NCBI GenBank assembly: GCA_903832005.1
Contig: CAIKZO010000132.1
Span: 26,035 to 90,034 of the forward strand
DNA from: Enhydrobacter aerosaccus
GTDB lineage: Bacteria; Pseudomonadota; Alphaproteobacteria; Reyranellales; Reyranellaceae
Direction of reading: 5' to 3'
DNA: 64,000 nucleotides
In this document: positions 8,097-64,000 of the stretch, one piece after another
How positions within the stretch are numbered: position 1 is the first letter of the stretch
Layout of the letters: each line of letters begins with the position of its first letter
Translations under genes and position numbers: made by a program
The notes under the pieces: generated by a model
The model's input: the letters and a program-made list of their open reading frames with translations, nothing else
The model's database searches: none
Told to the model about the DNA's origin: nothing

Positions 8097-9998
8097 ATGT
8101 ATACCGTGCTTCGCGTCGAACGGGATGGGAACCGCGCTATGGCGAAGGCAAAGAAGCCGAAGAAAGCTGCGAAGCGAAAGACGCCGAAGGCGAAGAAGCG
8201 CGCGGTAAAGAAGCCGGTCGCCAAGAAGCCTGTTGCCAAAAAGAAGGCCGCCTCGGCCAAGATCGCCGCTCCCAAGCCGATCGCACGGCCGGCCTTCAGG
8301 CGCTCGTCCAAGAACCGCACCTCCGTCGCCCGCATGCCCGGCGCCCGCCCTGCTCCGCACAAGGCGGCATTGGCGGCGCACAATATCTACGAGCGCGATC
8401 TCGACAAGACCGCGGCCAACTACGCGGCCCTCACGCCGCTCCAGTTCATGGAGCGCACGGCCAGCGTCTACCCGGAGCATCTGGCGCTGATCCACGGCGA
8501 GCGGCGGCAGACCTGGGCGGAGACCTATGCGCGCTGCAGGCGGCTGGCCTCGGCGCTCTCCCAGATGGGCATCGGCGTCGGCGACACGGTGTCGATCATG
8601 GCACCCAACATTCCGGAGATGTACGAGGCGCATTTCGGCGTGCCGATGTCGGGCGGCGTGCTCAATGCGCTGAACACAAGGCTCGATGCGGCGATGCTGG
8701 CCTTCATTCTCGACCACAGCGAGACCAAGGTGCTGCTGGTCGACCGCGAATATCATCGCGTGATGACCGAGGCGCTGAGCCAGTGCAAGGTCCAGCCGTT
8801 CGTAGTCGACATCGACGACCCGCTGTGTGACGACCGCGCGCAGATCGGCGACACGACCTACGAGGAGTTCCTCGCGACCGGCACGCCCGACTACGAGTGG
8901 CAGTATCCGTCCGACGAATGGAACGCGATCTCGCTCAACTATACCTCGGGCACGACCGGCAATCCGAAGGGCGTCGTCTATCATCATCGCGGCGCCACGC
9001 TCTCGGCCTACAGCAACGCAGCACTTTGGGGCGTGGGCACGCATCCGGTCTATCTGTGGACCCTGCCGATGTTCCACTGCAACGGCTGGTGCTTCCCCTG
9101 GACGCTCGCCCTCGTCGCCGGCACGTCGGTCTGCCTGCGTCGCATCACCGCCGGCACGATCTACGAGGCGCTTGCCGACCATGACGTCACGCACATGTGC
9201 GGCGCACCGATCATCATGCAGGCGATCATCGCCGCCTCGCCCACCGAGCGCCGCACCTTGGCGCAGCGGGTCGAGTTCATGACCGCGGCCTCGCCGCCAC
9301 CGGCCGCCGTGCTCGAGGCGCTGGAGCAGCAGAACTTCAAGGTGACGCACGTGTACGGCCTCACCGAGGTCTACGGTCCGGCGACCATGTGCGCCTGGCA
9401 CACCGATTGGGACTCGCTGCCGCCCGCCGAGCAGGCGCGGCTCAAGGCGCGGCAAGGCGTGCGTCATACCGCCGAGGATGGCGTCACGGTGATGGATCCG
9501 ATCACCATGAAGGAAGTGCCGCGCGACGGCACGACCATGGGCGAGGTGATGTTCCGCGGCAATCTCGTGATGAAGGGGTACCTCAAGAACCCCAAGGCCA
9601 CGAAGGATGCGTTCGAGAACGGCTGGTTCCACTCGGGCGACCTCGGCGTCCTGCACGAGGACGGCTACCTCGAACTGCGCGACCGCTCCAAGGACATCAT
9701 CATCTCGGGCGGCGAGAACATCTCGACCATCGAGGTCGAGGGCGTGATCATCAAGCACCCCGCCGTGGCCAACGTGGCCGTCGTCGCCAAGCCCGACGAG
9801 AAGTGGGGCGAGACGCCCTGCGCCTTCGTCGTGCTGAAGCCGGGCGCCTCGGCCACCGCCGAAGAGATCGTGGCGCATTGCCGCGCCCACCTCGCGAGTT
9901 TCAAGTGCCCGCGCTTCGTGGTGTTCCGCGACCTGCCGATGACATCGACGGGCAAGGTCCAGAAATTCATCCTGCGCGAGTGGGCCAAAGCCGTCTAG
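8097..9998 (+). CDS. AMP-dependent acyl-CoA synthetase/ligase with in-frame lysine/alanine/proline-rich (histone H1-like) N-terminal extension; catalytic core starts at 8334
   Basis: Residues ~16-60 are KAKKPKKAAKRKTPKAKKRAVKKPVAKKPVAKKKAASAKIAAPKP with no stop before the AMP-binding domain. From Met80 (ATG 8334) the protein is a standard ~554-aa medium-chain acyl-CoA ligase (TSGTTGNPKG motif). Confidence 0.8.
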   Translation: MYTVLRVERDGNRAMAKAKKPKKAAKRKTPKAKKRAVKKPVAKKPVAKKKAASAKIAAPKPIARPAFRRSSKNRTSVARMPGARPAPHKAALAAHNIYERDLDKTAANYAALTPLQFMERTASVYPEHLALIHGERRQTWAETYARCRRLASALSQMGIGVGDTVSIMAPNIPEMYEAHFGVPMSGGVLNALNTRLDAAMLAFILDHSETKVLLVDREYHRVMTEALSQCKVQPFVVDIDDPLCDDRAQIGDTTYEEFLATGTPDYEWQYPSDEWNAISLNYTSGTTGNPKGVVYHHRGATLSAYSNAALWGVGTHPVYLWTLPMFHCNGWCFPWTLALVAGTSVCLRRITAGTIYEALADHDVTHMCGAPIIMQAIIAASPTERRTLAQRVEFMTAASPPPAAVLEALEQQNFKVTHVYGLTEVYGPATMCAWHTDWDSLPPAEQARLKARQGVRHTAEDGVTVMDPITMKEVPRDGTTMGEVMFRGNLVMKGYLKNPKATKDAFENGWFHSGDLGVLHEDGYLELRDRSKDIIISGGENISTIEVEGVIIKHPAVANVAVVAKPDEKWGETPCAFVVLKPGASATAEEIVAHCRAHLASFKCPRFVVFRDLPMTSTGKVQKFILREWAKAV

Positions 9999-60673: not shown

Positions 60674-61363
60674 ATGGCCGATTCCGGCTCCTCGACGGCA
60701 ACACTCAGACTGACGATCGGCGATCTGAAGATCGCGCACCCGATCACCGTTCCCAACGCCGCCGTTCCCGCCCGCGACATCGTCCCTGCATTGCAGGGGC
60801 TGGTGAACGCAGCGGTCACCGCCGCCGAGAGCGGACAGGCGATCTCCTGCCGCAAGGGCTGTGGCGCCTGCTGCCGCCAGCTCGTGCCGGTCTCGCGCAC
60901 CGAGGGCGAGCGGCTGCTCGACCTCGTCGAGGCGATGCCCAAGGAACGTCGCAGGGAGATCCGGCGGCGCTTCGCGGCGGCCGAGGCCGTGCTCGCCCCG
61001 GCGGGCTTCGACAAGCGCACCGGCAAGACCGACCGCGAACTCTCGACCACTTACTTCGCGCTGGGCGTGGCCTGCCCGTTCCTCGAAGAAGAAAGCTGCT
61101 CGATCCATGAGGAGCGTCCCCTGATTTGCCGCGAGTATCTGGTGACGTCGCCGCCTGAACTCTGCGCCGGGCCACTGCAGGAGGGCGTGACGCCGGTGGC
61201 AGTGCCGAAAATCTCCCTCGCCGCCCGCAAGCTGCAGGACGAGAAGGACGAGTGGTTTCCGCTCGCGTTGCTCATGATGTGGGGACGTTCGCGTCCCAAG
61301 GGCGGCACTCGCCGGACGGGACCGGAATGGGTGCAGAGGTTTTTGAAGGGGGTAGCGGGGTAG
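60674..61363 (+). CDS. YkgJ-family cysteine-cluster (CxxCxxCC zinc/iron-chelating) protein
   Basis: [11 protein letters not shown]...CPFL...[14 protein letters not shown] motif set. 229 aa. Confidence 0.65.
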
Positions 61364-61543: not shown

Positions 61544-62620
<1,077 letters not shown>

Positions 62621-62674
62621 TGGGTGCCTCCCTTGATAATCCACGCCCCTGTCAGGAGCGGCAATACGATAACT

Positions 62675-62700
62675 GTACGCATTTTGTTCTATACAGCAAC
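62675..62700. promoter_or_regulatory. Candidate alphaproteobacterial SOS (LexA) box upstream of recA
   Basis: GTACgcattttGTTCtatacagCAAC resembles the alpha-type direct-repeat LexA motif GTTC-N7-GTTC with one mismatch per half. It sits 55-80 bp upstream of the recA start, in AT-rich DNA. Confidence 0.35.
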
Positions 62701-63760
62701 AGGGGAATTAACCTGCTGATAGGATTAAACTTATTGACACTAGTTCTAGGTCTGTTCCCTGTCTTCCACAACCCAGTTATCCCCTTGACGCATGTAGGCA
62801 CAAAGCCTAGATTCTGGACATGGCCAAGACCAAACCAATGACCGTCCGTCAGTTCTTCCAGATGTTCCCGACGGACGACGATTGCCTCGACCACCTGATG
62901 CGAACCCGCTTCGGGGATCGGCACGTCTGCGAGAAGTGCGGGAAGTCGGCCCACTACTACCGGATCAAGGCGCGCAAGGCTTACCAGTGTGAATACTGCG
63001 CCAATCACCTGTACCCCTGTGTCGGGACGCCCTTCGAGAAGTCGCGCACGCCTCTTCAATACTGGTACTTCGCCATGTATCTGTTCTGCGCCTCGCGTAA
63101 CGGCGTAGCGGCCAAGGAACTCCAGAGGCAGCTAGGCGTGACCTACAAGTGCGCATGGCGCATGGGCCACGAAATCCGCAAGTACATGGGCAAGGTTGAC
63201 GGTGATGCCCCGCTGGGTGGTTTCGGCATTGTGGAAGCCGACGAGACGTTTATCGGCGGCTACGACGAGCGCGGACACGATGACAAGGTGATCGTGCTGG
63301 GCGCGATCGAGCGCGGCGGCGAAGTGCAAACCGAAGTGGTCAAAAACCGCCGCGCGGGAACTCTTATTCCCGAGTTGAAGCAAATGCTGGTTCCGGGCGC
63401 TCGCGTTGTGACCGACGATTTCGTCAGCTATCACGATCTGCCGGGAGAGGGCTTCCCGCACGCCACCGTCAATCATTCGGCCGGTGAGTACGTCCGTGGC
63501 CCAGTCCACACGAACAACATTGAGGCGTTCTGGTCGGTGCTAAAGCGCGGCATTAACGGCACCTACATCCACGTCTCGGAAAAGCATCTACCGAAGTACC
63601 TGAGCGAGTTTGAGTTTCGCTTTAATCTTCGGAAGAGCCCGCACGCTTTGTTCGATGCTTTGATTTTGGCTTTTCCACGGGGCCACCAAGCGCCATAGCT
63701 TCGGTTAGTTTCTGGAAGCGCTCGCTCGCATCGTCGCGAGTTTGATCCTCTTCGCGCTCG
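62700..63760 (+). mobile_element. IS1595-family insertion sequence (boundaries approximate)
   Basis: ~45-50% GC DNA surrounding the transposase gene. Clean terminal IRs could not be defined by eye: only weak CTTCCA(C/G)AA similarity between ~62745 and ~63705. Confidence 0.45.
62820..63698 (+). CDS. IS1595-family transposase (N-terminal zinc-ribbon plus DDE domain)
   Basis: CEKCGKS...CEYCANH zinc ribbon, followed by an ISXO2-like DDE domain. 292 aa. Confidence 0.85.
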   Translation: MAKTKPMTVRQFFQMFPTDDDCLDHLMRTRFGDRHVCEKCGKSAHYYRIKARKAYQCEYCANHLYPCVGTPFEKSRTPLQYWYFAMYLFCASRNGVAAKELQRQLGVTYKCAWRMGHEIRKYMGKVDGDAPLGGFGIVEADETFIGGYDERGHDDKVIVLGAIERGGEVQTEVVKNRRAGTLIPELKQMLVPGARVVTDDFVSYHDLPGEGFPHATVNHSAGEYVRGPVHTNNIEAFWSVLKRGINGTYIHVSEKHLPKYLSEFEFRFNLRKSPHALFDALILAFPRGHQAP

Positions 63761-64000
63761 TTCACGAATAGCTCAAGCTTCTTTTTCTTCCGGGCGTCTC
63801 TGAGATTCATCGCCATATGGATATCCGACGATTGGAATTTTGTCTTTGACGCCCTGCTTGCGCGCGTCCTCCAAGAGGCTGTCACATAACGACTTCGCAA
63901 GATACATGGTTACTTGCGCAAAATAACAGCCGTCAAAAATAGCTCCCTCAAAGACAATCGCTGCTTGGGTGAATGTGTCGTACGGCAGATAGATTTTGTC
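63757..64000 (-). CDS. 3' end of an unidentified gene entering from beyond the window (low-GC cargo region)
   Basis: Open frame from the window edge reading ...DKIYLPYDTFTQAAIVFEGAIFDGCYFAQVTMYLAKSLCDSLLEDARKQGVKDKIPIVGYPYGDESQRRPEEKEA to a stop at ~63757. Not in the track because it has no in-window start. Competes with the track ORF 63622..63900. Confidence 0.3.

Follow-up and report, generated by a model that had tools for sequence, protein, structure and literature searches.

The window, by which we mean the whole analysed stretch of 64,000 nucleotides, carries near its right end the recA gene on the minus strand (61544-62620, 358 aa, Pfam RecA 1.6e-144 plus RecA_C), with the ribosome-binding site AAGGGAGG in front of it. 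Upstream of recA lies the left part of an IS1595-family element with its passenger module (62772-64000, plus strand), the right end of which is past the window. The GC content is 0.656 for positions 1-62620, 0.457 for 62621-62771, 0.586 for the transposase gene and 0.493 for 63699-64000. An initial annotation had noticed this sharp fall near the window end, the intact transposase, a partial minus-strand ORF that leaves the window, and the IS1595-family insertion adjoining recA, and all of these were confirmed.

That annotation had also considered the entire low-GC block to be foreign and to begin about 80 bp from recA. Comparison with relatives allowed us to place the true left IS end at 62772, where the conserved IS end CCCAGTTATCCCCTTGACGCATGTAG begins. 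This is 152 bp before the recA ATG and about 70 bp away from the boundary proposed earlier. The low-GC DNA is thus foreign only from 62772 on. Relatives share the low-GC segment 62621-62771 upstream of recA, and their alignment establishes it as native, AT-rich recA control DNA. The initial annotation had itself named such a shared, native AT-rich promoter as evidence that would speak against it, and for most of the low-GC stretch beside recA this is what we see.

recA control region and its LexA boxes

From the sequence, we read the recA core promoter as a -35 element TTGCTG (62699-62694), a 16-nt spacer and a -10 element TACAGT (62677-62672), covering 62672-62699 on the minus strand; it is not called by a simple promoter scan. 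In the relative L090, whose RecA is 91% identical, the counterpart TTGTCG-16-TACATT has the same arrangement and is found in conserved alignment columns. The alignment of L090 and the window starts at the recA ATG, includes two LexA-type boxes and extends up to the spacer behind the distal one.

The alphaproteobacterial LexA operator is a direct repeat, GTTC-N7-GTTC or GAAC-N7-GAAC (PMC9578287, table 1). When the control region was tested against this pattern, the site at 62743-62757 was found to be perfect and the one at 62675-62689 to have one mismatch. We consider both to be predicted LexA operators, the motif having been assigned from the literature on other alphaproteobacteria. The distal, perfect box (GAACAGACCTAGAAC on the recA strand, GTTC-N7-GTTC on the plus strand) starts 137 bp before the recA ATG and is conserved in L090, L093 and L176. 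It is the only perfect box of the recA region and had been overlooked previously. The perfect pattern occurs twice in the 64 kb, and we rejected the second copy (8118-8132) as an SOS operator: it is inside long ORFs and probably a chance match. Of 78 alphaproteobacterial recA loci, 48 have a perfect box in the 350 bp that precede the RecA match.

The proximal box, which starts 69 bp before the ATG, is the GTAC-N7-GTTC motif that had been proposed to resemble a LexA box (GTACGCATTTTGTTC at 62675-62689, which is GAACAAAATGCGTAC, GAAC-N7-GTAC, on the recA strand). It overlaps the promoter spacer and the -10 element and is kept in L090 as GAACAAAAAGCGTAC. In Bradyrhizobium/Afipia-type recA promoters, too, a second box GAAC-N7-GTAC follows the perfect one. 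In a motif scan of the window, boxes with one mismatch were no rarer than expected by chance (27 observed vs 43 expected), so that the proximal box is credible because of its conservation and position, not because of the rarity of the bare pattern. No part of either box or of the inferred core promoter is within the element, and the earlier idea that the insertion altered SOS control of recA is therefore unlikely to hold: operators and promoter appear intact.

The IS1595-family element and its passenger module

The left terminal inverted repeat (IRL, CCCAGTTATCCCCTTGACGCATGTAGGC, 62772-62799, plus strand) was recognised through relatives, as an inverted-repeat search inside 62560-64000 returned only chance-level pairs. 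It has 21 positions that do not vary among four relatives, whose transposases are 73-77% identical, and its counterpart pairs with right repeats in the relatives. The copy at 62772 is the only inverted repeat of this element type in the window; no right inverted repeat was found before 64000, the element being cut by the window end. The IS terminus is abutted by TTCCACAA (62764-62771), which by analogy with relatives is presumably the left copy of an 8-bp target-site duplication. In about 50 related elements, perfect 8-bp duplications adjoin termini that are 6 nt outside a TATCCCC core. One isolate that carries a related copy is Afipia birgiae 34632 (NZ_HG326654.1). Both terminal repeats could be defined in more than 55 elements, the right repeat being 0.6-1.9 kb past the transposase gene, and resolved relatives have a total length of 1.5-2.9 kb. 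By analogy, we infer an intact right end and a second duplication for the window copy as well; its right repeat would resemble ...CTACATG..GGGGATAACTGGG.

The transposase (62820-63698, plus strand, 292 aa) matches Zn_ribbon_IS1595 (PF12760, 1.8e-11, residues 17-62), DDE_Tnp_IS1595 (PF12762, 1.9e-36, profile positions 4-153 of 153) and NCBIfam NF033547 transpos_IS1595 (4.6e-60, 203 bits vs a cut-off of 75). The zinc-ribbon cysteines C37, C40, C57 and C60 are invariant in 21 homologues. In the homologue alignment D141, D199 and E235 are invariant and K242, seven residues past the glutamate, is nearly so; from what is known of the family we take these four to be candidate catalytic residues. Together, the profile matches and the conserved terminus establish that the element belongs to the IS1595 family and that its left end is at 62772. 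Inside the IRL, facing the transposase gene, is a sigma-70-like promoter TTGACG-17-TAGATT (62785-62813, plus strand), which is a consensus match only. As the ATG at 62820 is about 7 nt after the -10 element, the transposase transcript may be leaderless.

Ends and DDE-K signature resemble those of the passenger-carrying ISNwi1-like type. The criteria of this subgroup in ISfinder we take to be an end ggnnatTAT, a DDEK signature and passenger genes. The window end reads CCCAGTTAT, those of relatives CGCAATTAT or GGGGATTAT, and passenger ORFs are present; the assignment is provisional.

Low-GC DNA indeed continues after the transposase gene, as had been noted earlier, yet up to 64000 it is inside the IS rather than past it. 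A conserved small ORF of 62-64 aa (63622-63816, with ATG at 63810 or 63816) is encoded on the opposite strand and overlaps the transposase 3′ end. It was found throughout the clade and has four database homologues. In its non-overlapping part, divergence at the third codon position is 0.52, compared to 0.22-0.26 at positions 1 and 2. No Pfam or NCBIfam match and no recognisable DNA-binding family was found for it; an AlphaFold2 model (pLDDT 71) predicts two helices and a disordered basic tail. The partial minus-strand ORF which leaves the window (coding from 64000 to 63776, 75 codons, stop at 63773-63775) overlaps the start of the small ORF and represents the 3′ end of a passenger ORF. No homologue of the 75-aa fragment was found, and its sole profile match is sub-threshold (Pentapeptide_3, E 0.0085).

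In every resolved relative this slot is filled by a hypervariable ORF, about 120-360 aa long. These passenger ORFs are mostly unrelated and many have hydrophobic N-termini; Pfam returned no matches for them except Peptidase_M78 in one distant element. By analogy with these relatives, what had been regarded as cargo, possibly an accessory island, is the element's own passenger module, which is 0.6-1.9 kb long in the relatives, and a large island is neither needed nor shown. The element consists of three genes: the transposase, the small ORF on the opposite strand and, upstream of the latter, the hypervariable passenger ORF.

Exact-protein look-ups (transposase, RecA and a CxxCxxCC protein) revealed seven contigs that carry the window element, all of which stop at 63914-64000. 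An explanation of these ends by assembly k-mers (a repeat from 63861, with ends at 63914, 63936 and 64000 for k = 55, 77 and 141) was ruled out, as two contigs named k141 end differently, at 63936 and at 64000. In one population variant the transposase is split into two ORFs.

Insertion next to LexA boxes

The IS terminus in the window is 14 bp from the distal perfect box, counted to the first base of GAAC-N7-GAAC. This distance is composed of a 6-bp spacer (62758-62763) and the 8-bp target, and a spacer of 6-7 bp is also found in 28 related insertions. The initial annotation had not considered that abutting an SOS box could be the stereotyped landing habit of an IS clade.

We analysed 61 elements with defined ends (a first set of 55, the closest relatives and the window element), nearly all of them with perfect 8-bp duplications. 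A LexA-type box with at most one mismatch is found 12-16 bp from one terminus in 32 of the 61, and 24 of these 32 boxes are perfect. Among 55 elements, a perfect, outward-reading GAAC-N7-GAAC occurs at 14-15 bp in 17 cases and at 14-16 bp in 20, while 0.005 would be expected by chance (background 2.2e-5 per position). The resulting P of about 5e-56 overstates independence: it treats all insertions as independent, while many of the boxes concerned belong to recA promoters of Bradyrhizobium/Afipia-type hosts that are related to one another, although the duplications differ there. The polarity is fixed: boxes in the GAAC orientation lie 14-16 bp from the terminus, and the four reversed ones 12-13 bp from it. 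Downstream of the targeted operators are recA (at least 19 loci), lexA (L103, L146), the class II ribonucleotide reductase gene nrdJ (L092), mraZ (L099) and an SNase locus (L149). As to the INDEPENDENCE of insertions, each locus has a different duplication, with two identical copies. The box can be next to the left or to the right element end, and different elements carry unrelated passenger genes. Spacing and polarity are stereotyped across many independent insertions. Insertions elsewhere in SOS promoters may be removed by purifying selection, which would sharpen the spacing pattern.

Two other relations between element and box were considered and rejected. The box is not part of the element, as the 8-bp duplication separates it from the terminus and either end can face it. 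Nor does the transposase mimic the LexA DNA-binding domain, BLASTP showing no similarity.

The association could also reflect general features of SOS promoters (AT-rich, bent, nucleoid-free DNA) combined with selection for harmless sites, without recognition of the operator. Many IS prefer AT-rich or intergenic DNA, the native recA upstream DNA with its GC content of 0.457 is of this kind, and about half of the wider family has inserted without an adjacent box, the association tracking the inverted-repeat/transposase clade. However, such features would hardly account for a nucleotide-precise distance of 14-15 bp with fixed polarity to a direct repeat at five genes with unrelated host flanks, nor for the frequency of boxes given their low background density. 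In addition, the 8-bp targets share no composition, ranging from GC-rich CCGCACCC to AT-rich TGTAAAAA. We therefore consider this explanation quite improbable. Among close relatives the target 8 bp differ completely while the box is conserved, which is not fully explained.

The recA site itself is occupied by four different elements of one alphaproteobacterial clade (window, L176, L093 and L090; transposases 74-84% identical), all at the same position 14 bp from the operator. Taken alone, the presence of related elements at one place might suggest an ancient, vertically inherited and possibly domesticated element, fixed in this lineage's recA promoter, with no ongoing targeting. Against this, the orientation differs, recA being faced by the IRL in the window but by the IRR in L176, L093 and L090. 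Each element has a different duplication and an unrelated passenger gene, and the transposases have diverged to 74-84% identity while the operator is nearly identical. The same spacing is found at lexA, nrdJ and mraZ in other taxa, and the split transposase of the population variant points to decay rather than domestication. Finally, one contig with an identical RecA, found by exact-protein look-up, has no IS and a gap of 271 bp between recA and the ABC permease gene. An empty allele thus exists in the population of the window organism, seen as gene spacing. Descent from one ancient insertion is accordingly very improbable. Uninterrupted versions of the Bradyrhizobium/Afipia-type site exist as well. 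A RecA scan of the genome collection gave no relative above 83% identity, and hence no empty site at the nucleotide level; the close relatives L090, L093 and L176 were reached through homologues of the transposase and the small ORF.

This also bears on the reading implied by the initial annotation, according to which a larger accessory island of low GC content arrived with a randomly inserted IS, came to lie within about 80 bp of recA and disturbed its regulation by LexA. It is true that an IS and low-GC DNA adjoin recA, and the window ends at 64000. recA could still be modulated by outward or divergent transcription that starts at the IS end, where the promoter-like site 62785-62813 is located, or by the loss of upstream DNA. 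However, the element starts only at 62772, and the boxes and inferred promoter are native, conserved and intact. Its position is stereotyped in more than 30 independent insertions and so is not random, and in all resolved relatives a right repeat closes a passenger module of 0.6-1.9 kb after the transposase gene. We regard a random island insertion as improbable; the control region of recA has very probably stayed intact, and both broken SOS control and an accessory island are unwarranted assumptions.

The placement suggests transposition targeted to the operator, not a chance insertion that disrupted recA control. We consider it likely that an IS1595-family transposon has landed at the LexA-operator flank characteristic of its clade and that SOS control of recA was spared. 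The element would have transposed into the intergenic region between recA and the ABC transporter gene, generating an 8-bp target duplication, and the transposition machinery would select the promoter-distal flank of alphaproteobacterial LexA operators. This might be achieved by docking on operator-bound LexA or sensing the DNA distortion caused by bound LexA, or else by reading the operator sequence directly. Candidates for target selection are the transposase itself and the product of the conserved small ORF. With both LexA boxes and the core promoter left whole, recA and its SOS control would be spared, while the element would gain a conserved, selectively neutral 'safe' site. How targeting works, where the promoters lie and any link of the element's genes to the SOS response are what we infer from these comparisons.

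A more far-reaching version, which we put forward tentatively and hold to be possible rather than probable, is that this IS1595 clade uses operator-bound LexA as a protein landmark. By landing 14-15 bp upstream of SOS operators it would bring a hypervariable passenger gene beside SOS-regulated promoters, and LexA cleavage upon DNA damage or prophage induction could then control when the element transposes or when its passenger is expressed. Analogues of such a landmark are eukaryotic retrotransposons tethered to transcription factors, and Tn7 with TnsD.

If operator targeting is true, these elements are natural bacterial transposons whose target choice is set by the operator of a global repressor. 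They would add a new class of landmark beside those of Tn7, REP-hunters, res-hunters and RNA-guided elements, and would explain why alphaproteobacterial recA and lexA promoters are recurrent IS hot spots. They would provide a tractable system for asking if a simple DDE transposase can be guided by a DNA-binding protein of its host. They would also represent a widespread three-gene element whose middle slot places extremely diverse, uncharacterised ORFs beside SOS promoters. We found no description of LexA-operator-targeted transposition in the literature; as curated IS databases were outside this search, its status is provisional.

Comparison with known systems

Siguier et al. reportedly described, in 2009, the ISNwi1-type, passenger-carrying subgroup of IS1595 as 'transporter IS'. 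With the IS1595 family and this type, the window clade shares a transposase with Zn ribbon and DDE_Tnp_IS1595 domain, carrying a candidate D-D-E triad with a lysine seven residues on. Also as in the ISNwi1 type, there are 8-bp duplications (seen in relatives), ...ATTATCC... terminal repeats, and genes inside the repeats that are not involved in transposition. The window clade differs by its landing site 14-15 bp from LexA operators, of which we found no description, by the conserved small antisense ORF over the transposase 3′ end, and by a single hypervariable passenger slot with mostly unrelated ORFs.

Transposons with a fixed 'safe' site are known: Tn7, where TnsD binds glmS and insertion occurs at a fixed distance downstream, the REP-targeting IS1397 and ISPpu9/10, and IS1111-attC elements. 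As in these systems, insertions of the window clade occur at a reproducible distance and polarity from a recognisable host sequence and spare the adjacent gene together with its control region. In contrast to them, the landmark is the operator of the SOS repressor, which occurs at several genes per genome, and the transposase family is unrelated. While Tn7 has TnsD, neither a TnsD-like nor another dedicated targeting protein is recognisable in the window clade, but only the 62-aa protein with its two predicted helices.

Mobile elements can be wired to the SOS response, Tn5/IS50 being one of them. The promoters of ISCR transposases carry their own LexA boxes (PMC13393415), and integron integrases, too, are SOS-wired via LexA boxes of their own (PMC8876359). 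The window element is similar in that a LexA box is found near the promoter of the mobility gene, about 28 bp upstream of the promoter-like -35 element of the transposase. However, this box is the host gene's own, and the target duplication separates it from the element. Since it can be next to either end of the element, it represents a chosen target and not a built-in operator.

The IS1595-family element and the recA control region

The right end of the window carries alaS (minus strand, to about 60600), recA (61544-62620, minus strand; Pfam RecA 1.6e-144) and, between them, a plus-strand gene for a CxxCxxCC-domain protein (60674-61363, PF03692). The full recA-CxxCxxCC-alaS order is kept in contigs of the window's own population, and the recA-CxxCxxCC adjacency is also present in the relative L090. 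To the right of recA, a non-coding stretch of 199 bp is followed by an ORF of 292 aa (62820-63698, plus strand), a small ORF (63622-63816, minus strand) and a minus-strand ORF that leaves the window (coding from 64000 to 63776), the last of which had already been noted in the initial annotation. The drop in GC content that it had described near recA is confirmed, from 0.656 in the window up to recA to 0.457 at 62621-62771; the transposase gene has 0.586 and the DNA behind it 0.493. The transposase had rightly been called intact: the 292-aa protein matches DDE_Tnp_IS1595 over the whole profile (1.9e-36), Zn_ribbon_IS1595 (1.8e-11) and NCBIfam NF033547 (203 bits, cut-off 75), and is by these matches a complete IS1595-family transposase. 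On sequence tests, the element is placed in the IS1595 family. Its ends, its DDE-K spacing and its passenger genes resemble those of the ISNwi1-type subgroup.

When the window was searched alone, convincing inverted repeats were absent from 62560-64000. Element ends were mapped by aligning the DNA upstream of the transposase genes from loci with transposases 73-77% identical to that of the window. Among these relatives, similarity sets in abruptly at an invariant TTATCCCCTTGACGCATGTAG, which occurs only once in the window (62777-62797) and is paired in the relatives with an inverted copy 0.6-1.2 kb past the transposase stop. The same architecture was found in more than 50 elements, with a total length of 1.5-2.9 kb, in a single metagenome scan that used an alignment of 21 transposase sequences as query. 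These elements have TATCCCC as the core of the repeat, a terminus exactly 6 nt further out, and a perfect 8-bp direct duplication abutting both termini. By this rule the left end in the window is at 62772 (CCCAGTTATCCCC...), with TTCCACAA (62764-62771) as the presumed left copy of the 8-bp duplication. The foreign block, previously thought to begin about 80 bp from recA, is thus 152 bp away. A right repeat was not found before 64000, so that only the left part of the element falls in the window. What the window carries is an IS1595-family element that looks competent for transposition.

GTTCN7GTTC has been reported as the SOS box of Caulobacter (PMC9578287, table 1). Only two perfect matches occur in the 64 kb. 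One of them is at 62743-62757, beginning 137 bp ahead of the recA ATG and reading GAACAGACCTAGAAC on the recA strand. The other, GAAC-N7-GAAC at 8118-8132, falls where long ORFs overlap, close to the 3′ end of one with 816 aa on the minus strand, and is therefore probably a chance match. Of the 78 recA loci compared from alphaproteobacterial genomes, 48 carry a perfect box in the 350 bp upstream, and most boxes in these loci start 70-190 bp before the RecA match. The LexA-like motif initially pointed out next to recA is found at 62675-62689 (GAACAAAATGCGTAC on the recA strand) and has one mismatch. As a bare pattern it is not special, 27 one-mismatch matches being observed in the window versus 43 expected, but it is conserved in L090. 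The RecA of this relative is 91% identical to that of the window, and its recA upstream region aligns with that of the window over a stretch from the ATG that takes in both boxes (GGGAACGTACCTAGAACTTGTGTCAA versus GGGAACAGACCTAGAACTAGTGTCAA and GAACAAAAAGCGTACA versus GAACAAAATGCGTACA). The pair of a perfect box and a subsequent GAAC-N7-GTAC recurs in recA promoters of the Bradyrhizobium/Afipia type. The proximal box falls into the spacer and -10 region of a plausible recA promoter, TTGCTG-16-TACAGT, with TTGTCG-16-TACATT as its putative counterpart in L090. By box conservation and the alignment with L090, 62621-62771 is native, AT-rich regulatory DNA of recA. Neither box and no part of the putative promoter falls within the element, and the proposal that the insertion has altered the SOS control of recA is left without support.

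Spacing between elements and LexA-type boxes

The gap between the element terminus and the perfect box in the window is 14 bp, made up of the 8-bp target and a 6-bp spacer. In three relatives with nearly the same recA operator, a different family member occupies the same 14-bp position: L093 (transposase 79% identical to that of the window, duplication GAGATGCG), L090 (74%, GGATAATC) and L176 (transposase region 84% identical at the DNA level, box region identical in 29 of 30 positions, CTCCGAGT). The right inverted repeat (IRR) faces recA in all three, in L090 thus in the orientation opposite to the window, where it is the left one (IRL). Their passenger ORFs are unrelated to one another and to that of the window. 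In L092, from Reyranella, the IRR lies 15 bp from a box that precedes a gene for class II ribonucleotide reductase (duplication GAATCCCT). No box was present in L088 and L089, two further relatives.

We reconstructed the target site for every element with defined ends (55, later 61 with the closest relatives and the window). A perfect box is found at 14-15 bp in 17 of the 55 elements and at 14-16 bp in 20 of them, and all of these boxes read GAAC...GAAC outward from the element. With a background of 2.2e-5 per position for perfect boxes (about 0.88 Mb of surrounding DNA, both strands), 0.005 would be expected (binomial P 5e-56 for the 55 elements, the recA-promoter cases being partly non-independent). 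When one mismatch is allowed, a box lies 12-16 bp from one terminus in 32 of the 61 elements, and it is perfect in 24. Reverse polarity (GTTC...GTTC outward) occurs in four elements, at 12-13 bp instead of 14-16 bp (L094 and L135, and with one mismatch L144 and L145). The gene downstream of the targeted box is recA at at least 19 loci and lexA in L103 and L146 (LexA_DNA_bind and Peptidase_S24); mraZ-rsmH follows in L099, and a small hydrophobic ORF with an SNase gene in L149.

The duplications vary from one locus to the next, but the two copies at a locus match perfectly. The passenger genes are unrelated too, and either end of the element is seen next to the box; the insertions are therefore many, independent and fairly recent. 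Uninterrupted sites of the Bradyrhizobium/Afipia type occur in genomes (e.g. ...ggccagtac CGACACGT cggaaa GAACATATTGCGAAC), and the isolate genome Afipia birgiae 34632 has an element at its recA box. Box association follows the transposase/repeat clade: elements with termini of the CG...TATCCCC type are mostly box-associated, those with GGGGATTATCCCC termini mostly are not. Judged from these sequence comparisons, the abutment of element and box is no coincidence, and the association with LexA-type operators is shown to be clade-wide and specific for position and polarity.

Members of the sister clade with GGGGATTATCCCC termini (L113, L132, L138, L140, L169) insert in the middle of palindromes of the TGTAA-N8-TGACA or TGTCA-N8-TGACA type, and L119 and L123 are placed between inverted GGCCAGTAC motifs. 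These are target classes of another kind, and they too are non-random.

The insertion is polymorphic in the window's own population. An 11.3-kb contig (0taj4mvY, sample ERZ1426846) encodes identical RecA and CxxCxxCC proteins, has no transposase and represents the empty allele; in it, recA and a divergent operon for an ABC transporter (two permeases, a solute-binding protein) are just 271 bp apart. In contig y_ZNZ4bH (sample ERZ1426547), the transposase is split into ORFs of 207 aa and 73 aa and is evidently pseudogenised; L007, another copy of the window's locus, has a single substitution in the transposase gene (A to C at 63192). All seven contigs carrying the locus (L001-L007, several samples) break off within the passenger ORF, two at 63914, two at 63936 and the others at about 63978 and 64000 (L001, the window end). 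Strain-level variants, or a repeat in the passenger gene, may lie behind this; the contig ends were not explained by a simple k-mer boundary model. The 8-bp target differs completely among the window, L090, L093, L176 and four empty sites (L015, L026, L033, L047), and the operator 6 bp away is conserved. The hypervariable target could be an unconstrained spacer or the footprint of repeated insertion and excision.

The passenger module

All resolved relatives have a single layout, with the transposase on one strand and two ORFs on the other. The ORF nearer the right repeat is large (about 120-360 aa); the second is small (57-77 aa), and its 3′ end overlaps that of the transposase gene throughout the clade. 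The small ORF is conserved clade-wide, with a motif like LSLEEARKxGKLxxFAKEHP...FDRLLxAMA. In its non-overlapping part, divergence is 0.52 at the third codon position versus 0.22-0.26 at positions 1 and 2, which reads as a clear coding signature. It had no match in Pfam and NCBIfam searches and has only four database homologues, so that most gene callers seem to have overlooked it. Structure prediction gives two helices and a basic disordered tail (pLDDT 71). Right past its start codon the DNA similarity between elements is lost, much as at the edge of a cassette.

In an all-against-all BLASTP comparison, nearly every large ORF is a singleton, even where transposases are 73-84% identical. Many start with hydrophobic, membrane-helix-like segments, as judged by eye, and those tested have no Pfam family save in one distant element. 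In this element, L147, an ImmA/IrrE-type metallopeptidase as passenger (element coordinates 1038-1559, Peptidase_M78, 6.8e-19) lies beside a 156-aa ORF. By its position, the partial ORF of the window occupies the large-ORF slot; a homologue search gave no detectable match, and a pentapeptide-repeat match is sub-threshold.

As the layout is common to all resolved relatives, the low-GC DNA that follows the transposase gene is identified as the passenger module of the element. The accessory island initially suspected beyond 64000 has found no support; a larger island may exist but is not indicated. By analogy with the relatives, the right repeat is expected some 0.3-1.7 kb past 64000, with a second TTCCACAA, about 120 bp of native DNA and the ABC permease gene after it.

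Target selection and comparison with known systems

We consider operator-directed targeting very probably real, with the LexA-type operator directing the target selection of the element. It is rather doubtful that targeting depends on the LexA protein. One tentative proposal is that the element recognises operator-bound LexA, or the DNA distortion caused by it; this would fit a landmark that is defined functionally (recA, lexA, nrdJ), the acceptance of one-mismatch boxes with a freely variable N7, and insertion always on the promoter-distal flank. Alternatively, the repeat may be read directly by the transposase or the small protein. The other, palindromic targets of sister clades suggest that the element itself encodes the specificity; the transposase does not resemble LexA in sequence.

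The insertion has in effect reached a 'safe site', as it leaves promoter and operators intact. A sigma-70-like promoter match lies inside the IRL (TTGACG-17-TAGATT, 62785-62813). Its -35 region is about 28 bp from the box, so that SOS coupling of the element genes is possible. As either end may face the box, a fixed regulatory wiring is not implied.

The initial annotation was partly right in what it observed at this locus and largely wrong in its interpretation; the boundary, the altered SOS control and the island are without support. Following up its lead has led to something more interesting, a passenger-carrying IS family that very probably homes to SOS operators, with the window copy as a typical member. 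In a literature search of incomplete coverage, we found no description of LexA operators as IS targets. Other elements are known that insert at a set distance from a landmark of the host, among them Tn7/TnsD, REP-targeting IS and attC-targeting IS. ISCR elements (PMC13393415) and integrons (PMC8876359) are also tied to the SOS response, in both cases via a LexA box inside the element.
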